This document shows positions 24,644 through 44,147 of a stretch of DNA of 64,000 bases, in pieces. Below the pieces are notes generated by a model. That model saw nothing but the letters and a program-made list of their open reading frames with translations. It had not been told where the DNA came from and did no database searches. A program made the position numbers and the translations under genes. The stretch's first letter is position 1. Every line of letters begins with the position of its first letter. The stretch is from an uncultured bacterium (GTDB taxonomy: Bacteria; Oederibacteriota; JAAXVQ01; JAUVAV01): the NCBI GenBank assembly GCA_963710755.1, contig CAVQBK010000003.1:211605-275604 (forward strand). The letters are read 5' to 3'.

Positions 24644-24733
24644 CTCCTCCCCCAAAAAAGTCGAATCTCGGGTGGATGCCGTCCCTGGGCAGGAGGGGCA
24701 ATTAAGTTGTTATGTTGTTAACGTCCCGTTGAC
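24644..24733. repeat. R2 repeat (copy 2), ending ATTAAGTTGTTATGTTGTTAACGTCCCGTTGAC (MITE-like terminus)
   Basis: Aligns with 22936-23026. The last ~35 bp match the right end of the MITE family. Confidence 0.55.
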
Positions 24734-24772: not shown

Positions 24773-26269
24773 ATGAAAAAGTTAACTTATAGCCTGCTCT
24801 TATGTGGGCTTATATTGGATGGTTCCGTTCACGCTGAACTCGTCGAAAGAGGAACGCTCTCCGGCATCGTAACCACCTTTGACTCGGACAACGCAGGCGT
24901 TCTGTACCGAAACAGTGCCTCTGAGTATTGGCACCTAACTCGAGGCGGCGACGCCAAAAAACTTATCGCCAATTCACATTCTGAACGTGTGACATCGGTG
25001 TCACCTCAGCGCACTTACGCCCTTCTCCGCGGAATGGAAGGCATTCACATTGTGAAACTCAAAACCGGAGAAAAAATCCCCATAAAATTTAAGTTGAATT
25101 TTTCTCATCATGCTACCTGGCTTTTGGATGAAAGTAAATTCGCCTTTGTATCACGAAACAAGAAAGAAAGTGAACGCCCGGTTCTTTCTAATTTTACTGA
25201 AAATCTCTATCTTTTTAATGTTATTGAGTATGTCAAGGATTACAAGAATCGGTCACTCGCGGATATCGGTAATTATACAACAAAACTTACAACGTATACC
25301 AAAGGCTTTTGGATAGACAATCTCGCCTGGGCTACCGATCAGAAGAGACTTGCCTTTGGAACCTACCATCCGGAGAAAGTGAACAATCAATCTAAGTATT
25401 TTCATACGATAGAAGTTGTTGATATCTCCAGTGAAATGATTTCTACTGTAGCCAAGATGCCCAGCGATGGAATCTATTGGACCGGAAAGGATTCGCTGGC
25501 GTTTTTCGGCTATACCAAAGCAGGTGGTTGGACGCTCTACGCCAAAGAAGGCCAAGGGCCTGTAAAGCAACTCGTTCAGGGACGACCACACCATTGGGCT
25601 TTTTCCGAACAAGAGCGGAGTTATTTATACGACATGCCGCCTCACTCATCAAATCCGGGAAACGAACACTTTTGGAAGAATTTGGATAATAAAAGCATGA
25701 CCAGGATAGTAGGTGCTCTAAGGAATCCGATGTTATCCAAGGACGGAAAGTGGCTCTCATTCCAAGTCCCTGATACACTGGACAAAGCCATGGCCATCTT
25801 GGTTGAAACAAAACTCATCTCAGAGCGTGCCGTTAATGGGACAGTCAAGGTTGAGGACCTCATCCAAATACGTATGGGAGAAAGGCCATCAGTTTATGAC
25901 GTGAAGTCGTCACCCCTCCCTCAGCCATCGGTCACTTTTCGTTTGAATGATGTACAGGCCAATCAGGAATTCATCTCGTATGAGCTACATCTAAAGAATG
26001 AATTCAATGACAGGTACTTGCGTTTTAAATTTGTAAACCAACAGCAGATTGCCGGCAAAATTACAGACGCAACTGGCAATGAAGTCCTATCATGGCCGAG
26101 GATCGTTCAACCTGCCGTTTCAGCTTTCCTCGTGGGGCCGCATGAAACCAAGGTGTTCAGCGGACGTACCTCTTCCTCGTTGAAACCGGGTCAGACCTAT
26201 ACCGTCGCCTTTGAACTGATAGGATACCAAAACATTCCGACAGTCCAAACACAATTTACAGTCGACTAG
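24773..26269 (+). CDS. Secreted hypothetical protein (signal peptide; 498 aa), lower-GC
   Basis: N-terminal MKKLTYSLLLCGLILDGSVHA signal. No recognisable catalytic motif. Composition differs from the core genome. Confidence 0.5.
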   Translation: MKKLTYSLLLCGLILDGSVHAELVERGTLSGIVTTFDSDNAGVLYRNSASEYWHLTRGGDAKKLIANSHSERVTSVSPQRTYALLRGMEGIHIVKLKTGEKIPIKFKLNFSHHATWLLDESKFAFVSRNKKESERPVLSNFTENLYLFNVIEYVKDYKNRSLADIGNYTTKLTTYTKGFWIDNLAWATDQKRLAFGTYHPEKVNNQSKYFHTIEVVDISSEMISTVAKMPSDGIYWTGKDSLAFFGYTKAGGWTLYAKEGQGPVKQLVQGRPHHWAFSEQERSYLYDMPPHSSNPGNEHFWKNLDNKSMTRIVGALRNPMLSKDGKWLSFQVPDTLDKAMAILVETKLISERAVNGTVKVEDLIQIRMGERPSVYDVKSSPLPQPSVTFRLNDVQANQEFISYELHLKNEFNDRYLRFKFVNQQQIAGKITDATGNEVLSWPRIVQPAVSAFLVGPHETKVFSGRTSSSLKPGQTYTVAFELIGYQNIPTVQTQFTVD

Positions 26270-26350: not shown

Positions 26351-26569
26351 GTTCTAGGGGACGTTAACAACATAACAACTTAATAGACAGTTCCAAATAA
26401 ATGCAGTTATAATTACACCATGCCACGACAAAAACGACTGAATTTACCAGGGTAACAGACATTTAAGTGAGCGCCAAAGAACAAGCGGTATCGAAATGGT
26501 TCGAAAAAGGAAGGGAGATTTGTGAACGAAAAAATATAAAGTTGTTAAGTTGTTAACGTCCCGTAGAAC
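26351..26569. mobile_element. MITE-like non-autonomous element, copy A (~219 bp, 21-bp TIRs GTTCTAGGGGACGTTAACAAC / GTTGTTAACGTCCCGTAGAAC)
   Basis: Near-identical copies at 37354-37572 and 38987-39204 in the opposite orientation. Terminal inverted repeats seen directly. No coding capacity. Confidence 0.7.
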
Positions 26570-35256: not shown

Positions 35257-35403
35257 GTTTGGTTAGACCAGCGAATCCTAATTTCCTTCCAGTTTTTTGT
35301 TTTCATTAAGCTTATAAGCTTACTCCGGCCCCCAACCCCATTTCAACTCTGGACGCTCGATATTCGCGCTGTTTCATGAAACAAACAATGGGTTGTGTAT
35401 ATC

Positions 35404-35432
35404 TTGACAACCAATAGTGTCTGCGCCATAAT
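35404..35432 (+). promoter_or_regulatory. Sigma70-type promoter: TTGACA (35404-35409), 17-bp spacer, CATAAT (35427-35432)
   Basis: Consensus-like hexamers with ideal spacing, ~40 bp upstream of the ArsR-family gene start. Confidence 0.5.
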
Positions 35433-35439
35433 TAGATGG

Positions 35440-35455
35440 TTAGATAACTATCTAA
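35440..35455 (+). promoter_or_regulatory. Putative ArsR/SdpR operator: palindrome TTAGATA-AC-TATCTAA
   Basis: 7-2-7 perfect inverted repeat just downstream of the -10 and overlapping the predicted transcription start, a classic autorepressor arrangement. Confidence 0.5.
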
Positions 35456-35472
35456 CAACAAAAGGAGTGCGG

Positions 35473-35781
35473 ATGACAAAGAGCAATGCGTTTTTTCAAG
35501 CATTGGCCGACCCGACCCGGCGCCAGATTCTTAAATTGTTGCAGCACGCCGAGCAAACACCGGGCGAGCTGCTGGAGCATTTTGTTATGACCAAGCCGTC
35601 GTTGTCCCATCATTTGGATATTTTGAAAAAAGCGGATTTGGTGGAAACCCGGCGACAGGGGCAAAATATTTACTATTCTTTAAAGACCAGTGTATTTGAA
35701 GATGTGGTGGCTTTTTTGCTGGACTTCACGGGCAAACCAATAAGTAAAGCCGGCACACGCCGGCAAAAAAAGAAAGGTTGA
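35473..35781 (+). CDS. ArsR/SmtB-family transcriptional repressor (SdpR-like)
   Basis: ALADPTRRQILKLL...ELLEHFVMTKPSLSHHLDILKKADLV is the ArsR winged-HTH signature. RBS AAAGGAG 7 nt upstream of ATG 35473. The track ORF start at 35395 is overextended. Confidence 0.75.
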   Translation: MTKSNAFFQALADPTRRQILKLLQHAEQTPGELLEHFVMTKPSLSHHLDILKKADLVETRRQGQNIYYSLKTSVFEDVVAFLLDFTGKPISKAGTRRQKKKG

Positions 35782-35786
35782 GGAAC

Positions 35787-36440
35787 ATGTATACCATTGA
35801 ATGGAAAAAAGAGATTCCGGCTTTTGTTTTACTGGCCGTGGTGCTACTGGTGGTGGGGTTGATGTATCCGGCTTTACCCGAACGCCTGCCCATGCACTGG
35901 AACATCCAGGGTGAGGTGGACGGCTGGGTGGCCAAATCCTGGGGCAGTGTTTTCTGGATGCCCCTGATGTGCGTGGCCATGCATTTTCTTATGCTTTTTT
36001 TGCCGCTGATTGATCCCCGGAAAGAACGGTATGCCCAATTTTTACGCCCGTATCGTCAAATCCGGTATGGCTTGGTCATTTATTTGAGCTTGGTCTCCAT
36101 TCTGGTGCTGGTCGCAGCTATAATTCCGGCCATTCCGGTGCATTATATTATTGCCGGAACCGTATCCTTGCTCATGATTGTGATTGGAAATTATCTGGGC
36201 AAGTTGCGGCCGAACTGGTTTGTGGGCATCCGGCTGCCGTGGACTCTGGAGAATGAGGAAGTCTGGATACGCACGCACCGCTTGGGCGGCAAGCTGTTTG
36301 TGCTGGTGGGCATTATGGGTCTGATCGGACTTTTCTTCAAGCCCGTGGTTACCTTTGCGCTATTCTTTGGAAGCTTGTTGGTAACATTGGTTATTGTAGT
36401 GGTGTATGCGTTTCAATTGTATCGGAAGTTGAGTGGGTGA
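35787..36440 (+). CDS. SdpI/YhfL-family membrane protein (DUF1648 plus SdpI immunity-like domain)
   Basis: Polytopic. NWFVGIRLPWTLENEEVW matches the SdpI-family NxxxGxRxxWTL..EEvW motif. ATG 35787 has a GAGGA RBS; the track start TTG at 35778 is less likely. Confidence 0.65.
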   Translation: MYTIEWKKEIPAFVLLAVVLLVVGLMYPALPERLPMHWNIQGEVDGWVAKSWGSVFWMPLMCVAMHFLMLFLPLIDPRKERYAQFLRPYRQIRYGLVIYLSLVSILVLVAAIIPAIPVHYIIAGTVSLLMIVIGNYLGKLRPNWFVGIRLPWTLENEEVWIRTHRLGGKLFVLVGIMGLIGLFFKPVVTFALFFGSLLVTLVIVVVYAFQLYRKLSG

Positions 36441-36774: not shown

Positions 36775-37077
36775 TTACTCAAACCAACTGGTCAGGAAAT
36801 CTTGGCATTTATGAAGCTTAAATTCTGTAATTCGATATTCTTGAATGCCTGCTTTCACCAATGGATCATCATTACAAAATTTCTCAATGTCTTCACATTT
36901 TACTATAATTATCCCTCCTCCAGCACCAACTTTGGGACCAGAGACAAGCACTGATCCGTCTTTAAACCCAATATCAAGATATTCTAGATGTGCCTTAATC
37001 GCTTTTTCCATTTCTTTTTGTACAGGAAGGTTTTCTACGAATGAACCTTCCAATGTGTAATATTTATTTCCGTTCAT
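36775..37077 (-). CDS. YciI-like protein (Dabb fold)
   Basis: 100 aa. ...DGSVLVSGPKVGAGGGIIIVKCEDIEKFCNDDPLVKAGIQEYRITEF is typical of the YciI family. AT-rich. Confidence 0.55.
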   Translation of the reverse strand: MNGNKYYTLEGSFVENLPVQKEMEKAIKAHLEYLDIGFKDGSVLVSGPKVGAGGGIIIVKCEDIEKFCNDDPLVKAGIQEYRITEFKLHKCQDFLTSWFE

Positions 37078-37353: not shown

Positions 37354-37572
37354 GTTCTACGGGACGTTAACAACTTAACAACTTTATATTTTTTCGTTCA
37401 CAAATCTCCCTTCCTTTTTCGAACCATTTCGATACCGCTTGTTCTTTGGCGCTCACTTAAATGTCTGTCACCCTGGTAAATTCAGTCGTTTTTGTCGTGG
37501 CATGGTGTAATTATAACTGCATTTATTTGGAACTGTCTATTAAGTTGTTATGTTGTTAACGTCCCCTAGAAC
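37354..37572. mobile_element. MITE-like element, copy B (inverted relative to copy A)
   Basis: Reverse complement of copy A with TIRs GTTCTACGGGACGTTAACAAC / GTTGTTAACGTCCCCTAGAAC. Confidence 0.7.
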
Positions 37573-37726
37573 TAACGTTCTATTCCCAGACTTTTTCTTT
37601 TTTCATTTCACTTTTTTACAAAAAAAGGACATGCCTATAGTTTCAAGTTAGACATGTCCCCTAATCTTATCCAAAATAAAAACCCACCCGACTAGCTTTA
37701 GGTGGGTTAATTAAAATGCTCTATTA

Positions 37727-38092
37727 TTAACTCTGAAAATAATGTTTATATTTTTTCGGCAACGCTTTTGATTTCGCGCCACCTTTTTTAATCTTTGAAA
37801 CTAATTTTTCAGAGGCATCTGGTTTCCTAATATGGCTTTTATTTGCTGACCAAGCTAAAATATCAGATAGTAATTCTTCTTTTACTCGAATATAATTCAC
37901 AAAGGATTTCTTTTTTACAAACGGATGTTCACCCGGTTCAATTATACAAGAACGGTCACATGGCCTATCTTCGCGTACTGTCGAAAGACTCACAAGTAAA
38001 CAATGTGTCTCGTTATTACAAACAACGAAAAACAGATGATGGGAAGAAGGACTGTCAGTAGGGATTAAAAAAGCAGCACCAATTAATGACAT
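37727..38092 (-). CDS. Hypothetical protein, candidate toxin partner of the Panacea-domain antitoxin (121 aa)
   Basis: Overlaps the upstream Panacea gene by 10 nt in an AT-rich context. Ends Lys-rich. No family recognised. Confidence 0.35.
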   Translation of the reverse strand: MSLIGAAFLIPTDSPSSHHLFFVVCNNETHCLLVSLSTVREDRPCDRSCIIEPGEHPFVKKKSFVNYIRVKEELLSDILAWSANKSHIRKPDASEKLVSKIKKGGAKSKALPKKYKHYFQS

Positions 38093-38640
38093 TCCAAAAA
38101 TTGCTTTGCTTTATTAAAGCGGTGAATGTCCTTTTCAATTTCTTTTATAACTTGTGTGGATTTCCCAACGGCTCTAAAAATATCTTCGATTTCAATGGGT
38201 TTTGATGAACCTTCGGGGTCTTGCCACTCTTTTAAATACCTATGACAGTATTTTTCAATTTGCCACTGATTAAAATGCCTAAACTTGTGTGAAACTTTTT
38301 CTATTAGCTCTATCTCTCTTTCGCTTAACTCTCCATCCTCACATTCATTATGAGCGGAAACGTTATAATTATTCCGCACTATATGTTTATGCCAATAGGA
38401 GTCTTCCCCTGGTTTTGGTTTATAATTAATAGTATCCAATATTTCACTTACAACTGGACCATGAGGCAATGAAAAATACCTGTCACAAGTAATAGGTGCT
38501 TCCCATTTTTTCAAAGCTTCCCTGTCTGCAATATATAGAAGCTTGATTAGCTTCATATAGTTAATACGCCCACCTTCTTTTTTAATAAAATGGCAGGCTG
38601 CTTGTGTTGCTTTTTTAATATCAAACTCGAATTGGATCAT
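38083..38640 (-). CDS. Panacea-domain (DUF4065, SocA-like) putative antitoxin
   Basis: N-terminal MKLIKLLYIADREALKKWEAPITCDRYFSLPHGPVVSEI matches the Panacea core (KLxKLLYxADRE...GxPxxx..Y.A...GPV). Confidence 0.6.
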   Translation of the reverse strand: MIQFEFDIKKATQAACHFIKKEGGRINYMKLIKLLYIADREALKKWEAPITCDRYFSLPHGPVVSEILDTINYKPKPGEDSYWHKHIVRNNYNVSAHNECEDGELSEREIELIEKVSHKFRHFNQWQIEKYCHRYLKEWQDPEGSSKPIEIEDIFRAVGKSTQVIKEIEKDIHRFNKAKQFLECH

Positions 38641-38986
38641 TTTAACCGCCCCTTATTTACCCGAATTCGGCCCAATTTCTAGTGAATTCGCCTACACTTT
38701 CATAATAGTTTCGTCTCAATAGTTGATATTGTTTAGACCCTGATTTGACTTTAAATACCGCTTAAGCGGTATTTAACTATATAGAAGTATAGCATACGCC
38801 CCGATATAAACACAACATATTGTCCAGCTCACCCAAGTTGCCTAAAGCCATTTGTCGTATCCAACCAGTATTAAACCCTTATAAATCAACGGTTTTCCCT
38901 CATCCAGAGTGCGCCTTCTCGACGCTATCCATCATGTCATCCTTTTTTGAATTCTCGCCCCTGAAGGTTCTGCACTGTAATGTTGG

Positions 38987-39204
38987 TTCTAGGGGACGTT
39001 AACAACTTAACAACTTTATATTTTTCCGTTCACAAATCTCCCTTCCTTTTTCGAACCATTTCGATACCGCTTGTTCTTTGGCGCTCACTTAAATGTCTGT
39101 CACCCTGGTAAATTCAGTCGTTTTTGTCGTGGCATGGCGTAATTATAACTGCATTTATTTGGAACTGTCTATTAAGTTGTTATGTTGTTAACGTCCCCTA
39201 GAAC
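38987..39204. mobile_element. MITE-like element, copy C (same orientation as copy B)
   Basis: Near-identical to copy B. TIRs GTTCTAGGGGACGTTAACAAC / GTTGTTAACGTCCCCTAGAAC. Confidence 0.7.
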
Positions 39205-39687: not shown

Positions 39688-41058
39688 TTACCGATCCCCC
39701 TGGACCGCCTCTTCATTCAGCAGGCCTTCAATATTCTCAACAACTAAAAAATTCAGCTCTTTGCCTCGTTTACGCTCCTCTAAAAACCCTTTCTTGGCCA
39801 GATCCAACAAATCCGACCGGGCCGTGCCCCAGGAGATGGCATTTGAATTTTGATAGTTTTTAATGGTATAGGCAAAGTCCTTATGGTTGATGGCATGATT
39901 TAACAGATCGATCTGCCGATAGTTTAAATCCTCTCTTCTTTTTATCCTGGTTCTGAGCCGATGATAGTTAACCACTTTCTTTTCAACATAGGCTTCCAGC
40001 GCTTCGATACTTTTTCGAATAATACTTAGATGATAATAAATAAAATAATTTAAATCTCCGCCGTCGCATTCGGTATTTAAATAAGCCCTTTTATATTGGC
40101 CTTTGGATTGATTGATCATTTCCGAAATGGAAACATATTCAAATAATTTATACTGCTTGCTAATCAGGTACCAATAAAACAATCCCCGGGCCGTCCGGCC
40201 GTTGCCGTCGGTAAAGGGATGGATATAACCGATCATAAAGTGGAGGATAATGGCTTTTATAACCGGGTGAACGAACTCCTGGTCGTCATTGGCAAAGTCA
40301 CATAAGGCCTGGATTCTCTGCTCCACTTCTGCATAAGGGGGCGGTATAAACAAGACTTCCTGGTCCGCATCATGTACATTAACCTGTTCTTTTCTAAAAG
40401 AACCTTCTTCCTCAGGATTTTCCAACAACCCGGCAGTTAAATCTTGATGTATTTTTTTAATTAATTCCGGGGAGAGCTTTTGGGTTTTATACTGCTTGGT
40501 TATTTTAATAATCGCACTATAGTTATTGATGATCATTTTTTCATCCTGCGTTTTTGGTTTCTTGCCGGCCTTGATCATTTCCTTGGCTTGTTTGCGCGTG
40601 GTGGCCGCGCCTTCTATTTGGGATGAAGTGATGGCTTCTTCCATCAACGCGTGTATGATTCTTTGTTTCAGCCATTCTTCCTTGTGGTCTTCTTCGCCGG
40701 CATTTTGAAAAACCATATTATCCGAAAGATGGATATCGACATAGTGGATCTCTTTTAAGATGCTGTTGGTTAATTTATAGGAAAAGGGGCTATTTTTAAT
40801 ATCCACCAAGCCCTTGGTTTCCAGACTCTGCGAACGTAAAAAAATTTTCATATAAAGCCATAAGGTTAAATGATCATAACTGCTTTCCGGTAAGGGACTA
40901 TTAGAGAACTTGTTCCAGGTCCAGTACTCTTCATAGGCTTGATTAAGAAAAATGCTTAGTTCTTTTTTCGCGTGAAGCTGTTTATGAATCGTCAATAACG
41001 TCATCATTAAATCATCATTGAGCTTTTCCACTATATTGGGAAAGTATGGTTTTTGCAC
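39688..41058 (-). CDS. Fic-family protein (class II, with inhibitory SxxxEG helix), 456 aa
   Basis: Fic motif HPFTDGNGRTAR. Inhibitory motif SSQIEG lies N-terminal to the core. GTG start. AT-rich. Confidence 0.8.
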   Translation of the reverse strand: MQKPYFPNIVEKLNDDLMMTLLTIHKQLHAKKELSIFLNQAYEEYWTWNKFSNSPLPESSYDHLTLWLYMKIFLRSQSLETKGLVDIKNSPFSYKLTNSILKEIHYVDIHLSDNMVFQNAGEEDHKEEWLKQRIIHALMEEAITSSQIEGAATTRKQAKEMIKAGKKPKTQDEKMIINNYSAIIKITKQYKTQKLSPELIKKIHQDLTAGLLENPEEEGSFRKEQVNVHDADQEVLFIPPPYAEVEQRIQALCDFANDDQEFVHPVIKAIILHFMIGYIHPFTDGNGRTARGLFYWYLISKQYKLFEYVSISEMINQSKGQYKRAYLNTECDGGDLNYFIYYHLSIIRKSIEALEAYVEKKVVNYHRLRTRIKRREDLNYRQIDLLNHAINHKDFAYTIKNYQNSNAISWGTARSDLLDLAKKGFLEERKRGKELNFLVVENIEGLLNEEAVQGDR

Positions 41059-41396: not shown

Positions 41397-42554
41397 TCAC
41401 TCTACGCCTTCATTCAACAGCCCTATATACGCACTGTAGGCATATATCCTACCCCGCTGTTTACCGCTGATTTCTTTGACGATCCCCAAACGCTCAAGCT
41501 GATTAAAGGCCGACACAATGGTGGGGGTGGTCAGGCCTGTCAGCTTTTTCATTTTTTTAATCGATAAAATGAGATGTTGCTCCATTTCACGGTGGAGGCG
41601 GAGGGCCGTGGTGGCACCTCTGCCGGTCTGCTGCAGGGCTTGCCGGTCTTGATTAACCAAAGCCATTAGTCTCTTGGCTGTATCCACGGCATTGCCCGCT
41701 GTTTCAATGAGGCCATCGGCAAAGAAGTCGAGCCAACTTTCCCAGTCTCCTTCAAGGCGCACCTGCTCCAGCAACTTGTAATACATCTCTTTATGTTTTT
41801 TAAAGTAAAGACTCATATACAGCATGGGCTGGGATAGTATTTTTTCTGTATATAATAATAATGTAATCAGCAACCTGCCGATACGGCCGTTGCCATCCAA
41901 AAAGGGATGGATCGTTTCAAACTGCACATGGGCCAGCGCCACTTTGATTAAAGCCGGTGTTCTGGTTTCCGCATTATGCAGGTACTTTTCAAAAGCATCA
42001 AGACACTCCATTAATAATTCCGGCGGTGGGGGCACAAAGCCGGCATTGCCCGGTCTGGTGCCGCCCACCCAATTTTGACTTTTTCTGAATTCTCCGGGAT
42101 TTTTACCGGCCCCCCTTCCCTGGGATAACAGCACTTGGTGTATTTCCCGGATAAGACGCAATGACAGAGGAAACCCTTCTTCCATCCGTTTTAACCCATG
42201 ATTGAGTGCAGCGACATATTGAGAAACTTCCTCCACATCATCGATTGGTACCCCGGGCATGGCTTCCGATTCATAAATGAGCAAATCTGAAAGGGACGAT
42301 TGCGTGCCTTCGATCCTGGAGGACATCACCGCCTCTTTACGGATATAAGCATATATAAAATAGGTAATATCGGGCAACAAGATCGCCGCACTGTCGAGCC
42401 GTCCTAAGCTGATTAAAGCCTGATCCAGTTTCAGACGTAAACCATCGTCAATAGCCAATTTCTTAAAATCCGGTATGGGATAGGGGACAAAGGCCTTGAC
42501 CTGTTCATCATAAACAGTTGTTGTAATATATCGTCCTGTTACCTCTTTAGTCAT
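41397..42554 (-). CDS. Fic-family protein (class II), 385 aa
   Basis: Fic motif HPFLDGNGRIGR and inhibitory motif SSRIEG. Confidence 0.8.
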   Translation of the reverse strand: MTKEVTGRYITTTVYDEQVKAFVPYPIPDFKKLAIDDGLRLKLDQALISLGRLDSAAILLPDITYFIYAYIRKEAVMSSRIEGTQSSLSDLLIYESEAMPGVPIDDVEEVSQYVAALNHGLKRMEEGFPLSLRLIREIHQVLLSQGRGAGKNPGEFRKSQNWVGGTRPGNAGFVPPPPELLMECLDAFEKYLHNAETRTPALIKVALAHVQFETIHPFLDGNGRIGRLLITLLLYTEKILSQPMLYMSLYFKKHKEMYYKLLEQVRLEGDWESWLDFFADGLIETAGNAVDTAKRLMALVNQDRQALQQTGRGATTALRLHREMEQHLILSIKKMKKLTGLTTPTIVSAFNQLERLGIVKEISGKQRGRIYAYSAYIGLLNEGVE

Positions 42555-43052: not shown

Positions 43053-44147
43053 TCATTTAATTTCATCTTTCACTTCCGGAACCCGTATAAATAAATTAAA
43101 CAACTTGTGATTGATATAATAAATCGAATTGCCCATCTTCTTTTTCTTTAAAAATCCACCATCTACCAATTCGTTTAAATATTTTGTGGCCGTGATCCTG
43201 GTTATGTTTAAATCCCGTTTCAGAAAATCTATTTTCGTATAGGGATGAAAAAATAAATTGTTTAAAAGATCCTGGCTATAAAAGCGGTATTTTTGGCGAA
43301 TCTCATGCTTGTAGGCCATCATTAATTCTCTGATTTTCAGGATGATGTGTATGGTTTGACGCGACGTTTGTTCAATCCCGGCAAGTATGAATAAAATCCA
43401 TTCTTCCCAAGCTTCCCGATCCCGTACGGCTTGTAAAAGACGATAATAATCATTTTTATTTTTAATAATGTATCGGCTGAGGTACAGCACCGGTATGTTT
43501 AATAACTTTTTTTGAACCAAATATAAAATATTGAGGATGCGTCCTGTCCTTCCATTGCCGTCATAAAAAGGATGGATGCTTTCAAATTGATGGTGAATCA
43601 CCGCCATCTTAATTAAAGGATCTATCGGCGAAATGTGATCATCATTGATATACTTCTCCAAGTTATTCATCAAACGCAAAATATCATCGGCATTTTGTGG
43701 TGGCGTATAGACCGTCTCACCGGTTTGATTATTTTTGAGTTCTGTTCCTGGAAGTTTTCGATATCCGGCCTTATGTTTAACCAATTCAGATTGAATTTCC
43801 AGTATAGTGTTGCTGGTCAACATGCCGCTCTTTTGCACCAACTGGAATCCTTTTTTCAATGCAATGGCATAATTTTGAACCTCTTTGGTTGCCGGACTGG
43901 TTTGCATCTCTTTAAAAAGACCAAGTTTAAACAATTCATCTTGGGTGGTAATAATATTTTCAATTGCAGAACTATCCTTAGCTTCCTGAAGGCCTAACGA
44001 ATTGATTAAAATATTTTGATTGGGTATGGTTTGCGAAATGCCTTTTAGTTCTGCTAAATATCTGTGCGCTCGGGCTGCTTTTTTTAATATCTCCTTTGAT
44101 TCAAGATCCGCTTTGGGCGGCAGATTATTTAACTGGTACATGGGCAC
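43053..44147 (-). CDS. Fic-family protein (class II), 364 aa
   Basis: Fic motif HPFYDGNGRTGR and inhibitory motif SSAIEN. Confidence 0.8.
   Translation of the reverse strand: MPMYQLNNLPPKADLESKEILKKAARAHRYLAELKGISQTIPNQNILINSLGLQEAKDSSAIENIITTQDELFKLGLFKEMQTSPATKEVQNYAIALKKGFQLVQKSGMLTSNTILEIQSELVKHKAGYRKLPGTELKNNQTGETVYTPPQNADDILRLMNNLEKYINDDHISPIDPLIKMAVIHHQFESIHPFYDGNGRTGRILNILYLVQKKLLNIPVLYLSRYIIKNKNDYYRLLQAVRDREAWEEWILFILAGIEQTSRQTIHIILKIRELMMAYKHEIRQKYRFYSQDLLNNLFFHPYTKIDFLKRDLNITRITATKYLNELVDGGFLKKKKMGNSIYYINHKLFNLFIRVPEVKDEIK

Follow-up and report, generated by a model that had tools for sequence, protein, structure and literature searches.

In a 64,000-nucleotide stretch of DNA from an uncultured bacterium of the Oederibacteriota (assembly GCA_963710755.1, contig CAVQBK010000003.1, positions 211,605 to 275,604; hereafter the window), two overlapping genes on the minus strand, here called panA and panT, probably form a bicistronic type II toxin-antitoxin module of the PanAT kind, in which a MazF-like endoribonuclease, PanT, would be neutralised by the Panacea-domain protein PanA. 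A sequence-only reading of the same DNA had recognised the Panacea gene and presented its 121-aa partner as a possible new toxin. PanT is instead a divergent member of a huge Panacea-associated family with a predicted MazF fold, and not a toxin of a new kind. The module consists of the following features (window coordinates):

38641-38985, minus strand: leader and regulatory region upstream of panA.
38083-38640, minus strand: panA, an open reading frame (ORF) of 185 aa encoding the Panacea-domain antitoxin.
37727-38092, minus strand: panT, a 121-aa ORF whose basic product is predicted to adopt the MazF/Kid/CcdB fold.
37671-37708, minus strand: intrinsic-terminator-like hairpin 3' of panT, in which the stem 37708-37701 pairs with 37688-37681 and is followed by a U-run.

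The identity of PanA is directly supported by profile matches. Residues 31-139 of the protein score 81.5 bits on the Pfam model PF13274 (SocA_Panacea), for which the gathering cut-off is 25.7 (E=1.1e-22). This bears out the Panacea core previously seen in 38083-38640. The protein also matches phrog_1281 over residues 4-177, nearly its full length (E=5.7e-29). No DNA-binding domain was recognisable in PanA. Its C-terminal part carries the motif TH..CPEWxDPxGSSxPI at approximately residues 132-150, which is strongly conserved across 21-23 PanA proteins paired with the panT family; the PanA proteins of other pairs are 29-42% identical to that of the window.

Together, panA and panT constitute a compact bicistronic operon. 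Both genes lie on the same strand, with the start of panT nested in the end of panA through a 10-nt overlap (ATGTCATTAA), in agreement with the overlapping downstream ORF described earlier, and they stand well within the 100 nt that the first criterion of Kurata et al. (2022) allows between the two genes of such a pair. A Shine-Dalgarno sequence graded as strong, AAGGGG, is located 7-12 nt ahead of the panA ATG. At the other end, folding placed the terminator-like hairpin 19 nt past the panT stop; its G+C-rich stem has 9 bp and leads into UUUUUAUUUU. A simple terminator scan overlooked it because of its long loop, and the z-score of the whole segment was an unremarkable -1.3. The leader contains a perfect 26-nt palindrome, TTAAATACCGCTTAAGCGGTATTTAA, at 38751-38776, some 110 nt before panA begins, which could be an operator or an RNA hairpin. 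The promoter scan returned no sigma-70-like promoter in 38641-38985, and searches of the window for tRNAs and Rfam families found none.

The conservation of the pair, also directly supported, was assessed by examining the upstream gene wherever the DNA of a panT relative could be obtained. Of 26 distinct loci that were informative, 25 had a Panacea gene directly upstream of the panT relative, and the gap between the two genes in those other loci ranged from -4 to +14 nt. A further locus (L001), at a contig end, was uninformative and is counted outside the 26. The lone exception (L020, 2462-2758) was a partial PanT-like ORF, corresponding to query residues 45-116, placed after a 211-aa ORF without resemblance to Panacea. 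The pair was found in a wide range of settings:

Phages and prophages: Klebsiella phage ST13-OXA48phi12.5, a Helicobacter pametensis prophage and a Vibrio tectivirus-like phage.
Plasmids: Endozoicomonas, Acinetobacter baumannii and Acetobacter.
Enterotoxigenic Escherichia coli (ETEC) H10407, L036, 4684531-4685519: pair WP_000458584.1 / WP_014640052.1, with the partner, WP_014640052.1, matching the family hidden Markov model (HMM) at 4.6e-36.
Metagenome-assembled genomes (MAGs): Gammaproteobacteria and Planctomycetota.
Metagenomes: nine distinct loci.
Five sampled long contigs: neighbours with precomputed PF13274 matches.

Among 5,426 complete E. coli genomes, 206 (about 4%) carry both genes of the pair; ETEC H10407 and O103 and O157:H7 strains are among them. 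There the pair is annotated as 'Panacea domain-containing protein' followed by 'hypothetical protein', and PanT homologues also occur in temperate phages of E. coli, Yersinia and Pseudomonas. The sequence-only reading had named a lack of conservation next to Panacea genes as what would speak against it. With panT conserved beside Panacea genes, the toxin-antitoxin reading survives, and it is the novelty claim alone that shrinks.

Two of the loci are damaged. In a Gammaproteobacteria MAG (L005, 3992-4294) the PanT homologue is truncated and adjoins a 1,299-aa methyltransferase/restriction-like gene, and in a Planctomycetota MAG (L006, 3369-3983) PanA is split by a frameshift, being intact in a sister MAG (L007). 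The contexts of the pair in loci L025 and L028-L031 are typical mobile or defence settings: one of these loci has an integrase, then the pair, then an N6/N4 methyltransferase with a ResIII helicase, and in others the pair adjoins HipA_2 with DUF3037 and AAA_14/DUF4143 genes.

The 121-aa PanT had no match in Pfam, NCBIfam or PADLOC, consistent with the earlier failure to assign it a family, and its sole library match was to a PHROGs family of unknown function, phrog_19071 (E=1.9e-14). A word-indexed search recovered only three relatives, at 36-38% identity, and a narrow-alignment scan of a genome collection yielded 3 loci. A family profile built with those three relatives and used in an exhaustive HMM search reached 2,417 representatives at E<=1e-3, of which 627 also pass E<=1e-10 (counted after clustering at 50% identity), nearly all of 120-150 aa, and the window PanT is at most 38% identical to any relative found. 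There was no credible Pfam match among 103 aligned family members, and wherever a source named the relatives they were labelled 'hypothetical protein'. PanT has a basic pI of 9.5 and contains 15 lysines. Its earlier description as cysteine-rich applies only modestly: there are 4 cysteines, and C49 alone is conserved in the family. The alignment defines a signature of nine positions, six of them polar (window numbering): H19 (100%), D46 (99%), C49 (96%) and H56 (99%), together with F58, S63, Y67, G104 and S108 (95-99%). All nine are intact in the window PanT.

An AlphaFold2 model of PanT, obtained with the 103-sequence alignment, had a predicted local distance difference test score of 94.6 and a predicted template modelling score of 0.86, with a topology of four main strands, a helix, a short strand and two C-terminal helices. 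In a Foldseek comparison with the PDB, MazF structures filled the top 33 places (probability ~1.00, template modelling score ~0.55), and the best matches among viral models were named 'Endoribonuclease' or 'PemK-like protein'. The model presents the SH3-like barrel of MazF, Kid and CcdB followed by a C-terminal helix, and on this structural evidence the PanT family is predicted with good confidence to have the MazF/Kid/CcdB fold. CcdB and the type III toxins ToxN, AbiQ and CptN gave lower structural scores; in the type III systems, moreover, the antitoxin is an RNA, whereas that of the window is a protein. The module is also set apart from the MazF/PemK/Kid systems by its Panacea antitoxin, theirs being MazE-type proteins of the AbrB/SpoVT or ribbon-helix-helix (RHH) class, and by an extra C-terminal helix in PanT.

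PanAT pairs with MazF-like toxins have already been described. Kurata et al. (2022; PNAS, PMC8832971) listed 88 PanT clusters, of which T5, T6, T8 and at least one more matched MazF/PemK/CcdB in HHpred with a probability above 99%. The MazF-like PanTs of Pseudomonas moraviensis and Bifidobacterium ruminantium were toxic, were rescued by their own PanA and specifically inhibited protein synthesis, as judged by 35S-Met incorporation; PanA and PanT of P. moraviensis co-purified as a complex, and neutralisation by PanA was independent of ClpXP and Lon (PMC8832971). The window locus shares with these systems a standalone Panacea antitoxin of ~185-195 aa encoded first, a toxin of ~120-140 aa annotated as 'hypothetical protein' encoded second, and the MazF/PemK/CcdB-type fold of the latter, and it differs in that the comparison of the PanT family with shallow MazF profiles was non-significant. 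Because MazF-like PanATs were already catalogued and two of them validated, the window module is a divergent member of a described pairing rather than a new toxin type; a family of 2,417 representatives, with a predicted MazF fold and a published kind of association with Panacea, does not support the suggestion of a new toxin.

Within that catalogue, the PanT family is probably cluster T6. The two agree in taxon range (Enterobacterales, Pseudomonas, Acinetobacter, Methylococcaceae, Oceanospirillales, Halomonas and Pasteurellaceae) and in the gaps between the genes (-4 or -1 nt, and 14 nt in Acinetobacter in both). A match of the PanA N-terminus to the 'MIFSEQKVAQ' extension of P. moraviensis was dropped as support for T6, the helix being perhaps common to many PanA proteins. 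An identity with cluster T1 was considered and rejected: the family HMM does not match gp28 of Listeria phage B025, labelled 'mRNase' by Kurata et al., and Salmonella phage Emek, a T1 member, was not recovered in phage searches with the family. At least some T1 members (Emek) and B025 gp28 therefore belong to a different family from PanT.

How the module would work is something we infer from the operon layout, the model and the characterised pairs. PanA would be translated first and PanT by translational coupling through the 10-nt overlap, with the hairpin terminator closing the operon. When free, PanT would most likely cut mRNA, tRNA or rRNA as a MazF-like endoribonuclease, and translation would stop. 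The enzyme-like set of invariant polar residues leads to this reading, together with the position of H19, which falls on the catalytic Arg25 of EndoA in a colinear but non-significant hhalign alignment. By analogy with other PanAT pairs, PanA would most likely neutralise PanT by direct binding. PanT may be set free by degradation of PanA, or by a trigger, for example phage infection, that the Panacea domain perceives. Ernits et al. (2023; PMC10440598) proposed that a standalone Panacea domain neutralises directly and may be a sensor.

Several observations weigh against PanT being a MazF-like endoribonuclease with toxic activity. None of the 103 family members matched PF02452 (MazF/PemK) at E<=0.1, and PDB sequence searches with two PanT profiles gave no meaningful match and no MazF. 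The alignment of the family profile with hhalign to Kid, to EndoA and to two MazF profiles was non-significant, with probabilities below 1%. The MazF and EndoA sequences used were confirmed to be genuine, but the MazF profiles were shallow (one of 3 sequences, another of 120 sequences of low diversity), which makes this sequence-level result weak negative evidence. The catalytic residues of MazF toxins are an arginine in the beta1-beta2 region and a threonine or serine at the end of beta3 (R25 and T48 in EndoA, R29 and T52 in MazF). The conserved set of PanT, His/Asp/Cys/His, differs from this Arg/Thr pair, so its chemistry may differ; the invariant H19 lies at the start of strand beta2 of the model, and the family has Ser/Thr at 35-38. 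Matching of accessions between the PanT family and the clusters of Kurata et al. or NetFlax gave no match in the tables. Furthermore, the window PanT, at 121 aa, is shorter than most of its relatives (~135-139 aa) and lacks their C-terminal 10-15 residues, and 8 of the 25 PanT candidates assayed by Kurata et al. were non-toxic in E. coli (PMC8832971).

These points feed the readings that compete with a MazF-like module. There is a fairly small chance that PanT has the MazF fold and a different catalytic centre, made up of the near-invariant H19, D46, C49 and H56 with S63 and Y67, and with it a different chemistry or target; a two-histidine RNase acting on specific tRNA or rRNA and a Cys/His-dependent modification are both possible forms of it. 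The conservation of the signature residues at 95-100% and the lack of detectable profile similarity to PF02452 and the MazF profiles point this way, as does the non-significant placing of H19 on Arg25 of EndoA. A structural role, for instance in a metal site, could however account for the conserved Cys, His and Asp, and the effect of the MazF-like PanTs that were validated is simply a block of translation. In a broader form, which we regard as rather unlikely, the whole family would be a distinct MazF/CcdB-fold branch whose H19/D46/C49/H56 centre has a non-MazF chemistry or target, with the CPEWxDPxGSSxPI motif of PanA blocking or sensing PanT. It is quite improbable that PanT acts, like CcdB, by poisoning DNA gyrase instead of being an RNase. 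So many invariant polar residues in a protein of 120 aa argue for an enzyme over a poison that, as CcdB does, works by binding only. CcdB poisons have a conserved gyrase-binding tip at the C-terminus, and this motif is not present in PanT.

The shortness of the window PanT and the non-toxic PanTs among those assayed bear on another alternative, namely that the pair, conserved elsewhere, is inert or decaying cargo in this host, with a non-toxic short PanT or as a hitch-hiker on AT-rich DNA between repeats. Decayed copies do occur (the truncated PanT of L005 and the frameshifted PanA of L006). Both window ORFs are nevertheless intact and still overlapping, with the nine signature residues, the Shine-Dalgarno sequence and the terminator in place, and a 119-aa PanT variant exists in Acinetobacter; we give this alternative a small chance. 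Finally, in a module like the type VI system SocAB of Caulobacter, PanA would be a proteolytic adaptor handing its toxin to ClpXP, instead of an inhibitor that blocks it by binding. SocA is the founding Panacea protein, and the NCBIfam SocA_antitoxin model does match PanA weakly. With 17.6 bits against an equivalog cut-off of 190, PanA is not a SocA orthologue; the fold class of PanT is unrelated to SocB, and other PanA proteins neutralise without ClpXP or Lon and form stable complexes, making an adaptor role very improbable. The reading of the locus as a bicistronic PanAT module with a MazF-like PanT is thus the one we retain.

The module differs from the surrounding DNA in composition. GC content is 34.7% in panT, in line with the AT-richness reported before, and 34.6% in panA, compared with 51.2% in the window, a contrast that suggests foreign origin; the panAT module was probably acquired horizontally. 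Two copies of a miniature inverted-repeat transposable element (MITE) flank the module, and further copies lie elsewhere in the window:

38986-39204: MITE copy C, 219 nt, upstream flank of panA, with 35-nt terminal inverted repeats.
37354-37572: MITE copy B, 219 nt, downstream flank, bounded by 35-nt terminal inverted repeats and lacking a long ORF.
26358-26562: MITE copy A, a third full copy, inverted with respect to B and C.
24706-24727: a solo MITE end.

The elements are like other MITEs in being short and non-coding, with 35-nt inverted repeats at 91-94%, and in being present as three full copies and a solo end; stops occur in all frames, and the window contains 7 occurrences of the end motif where 0 would be expected. 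Copies B and C are 99% identical and in direct orientation. A contig assembled from short reads of the same sample breaks near the MITE repeats, as repeated DNA would lead one to expect. No consistent target-site duplication was found at the single copies or at the outer ends of the B/C pair, where the sequence just lengthens the inverted repeat by 3 nt (TGT/ACA), and no empty site was found for the MITE-bounded segment. The cassette proposed earlier is therefore correct as geometry: it is a layout, and its mobility is putative. Since the AT-rich stretch reaches left past copy B to ~36.6 kb, the MITEs do not bound the entire low-GC segment.

Sites resembling sigma-70 promoters were detected within the repeats. 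Copy C contains TAGACA-18-TATAAT at 39171..39142 on the minus strand, facing panA from ~500 nt away, and copy B has the same match at 37510-37539, also on the minus strand; both are consensus matches only (11/12). As far as such matches go, the sites could drive panA (copy C) and the YCII gene at 36775-37077 (copy B). Elsewhere in the window, a 498-aa ORF with no Pfam match (24773-26269) is framed by the solo MITE end and the inverted copy A, making it a second gene bracketed by the same repeat family.

Three Fic/DOC-domain genes stand in a row beside panAT, all on the minus strand (39688-41058, 41397-42554 and 43053-44147). Two have a Fic_N domain and one a SoFic-like C-terminal domain, and their DNA is partly of low GC. 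With these genes next to panAT, the region resembles an accessory island carrying many toxin-like genes. ArsR and SdpI genes, which taken alone may hint at a Firmicute, are found at 35395-36440. The window proteins that were looked up are singletons at 90% identity.

In kind, the locus is ordinary, a further PanAT module on DNA that was probably acquired horizontally. What it offers in practice is annotation: a very widespread partner of Panacea, which so far goes under the label 'hypothetical protein' and is covered by neither a Pfam nor an NCBIfam model, can be given a predicted fold. What remains of interest is the unnamed family itself and its non-canonical conserved residues: the His/Asp/Cys/His signature offers clear mutational targets, and the E. 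coli copies provide an easy experimental system in which to address the putative cleavage targets of PanT and the question of phage defence.
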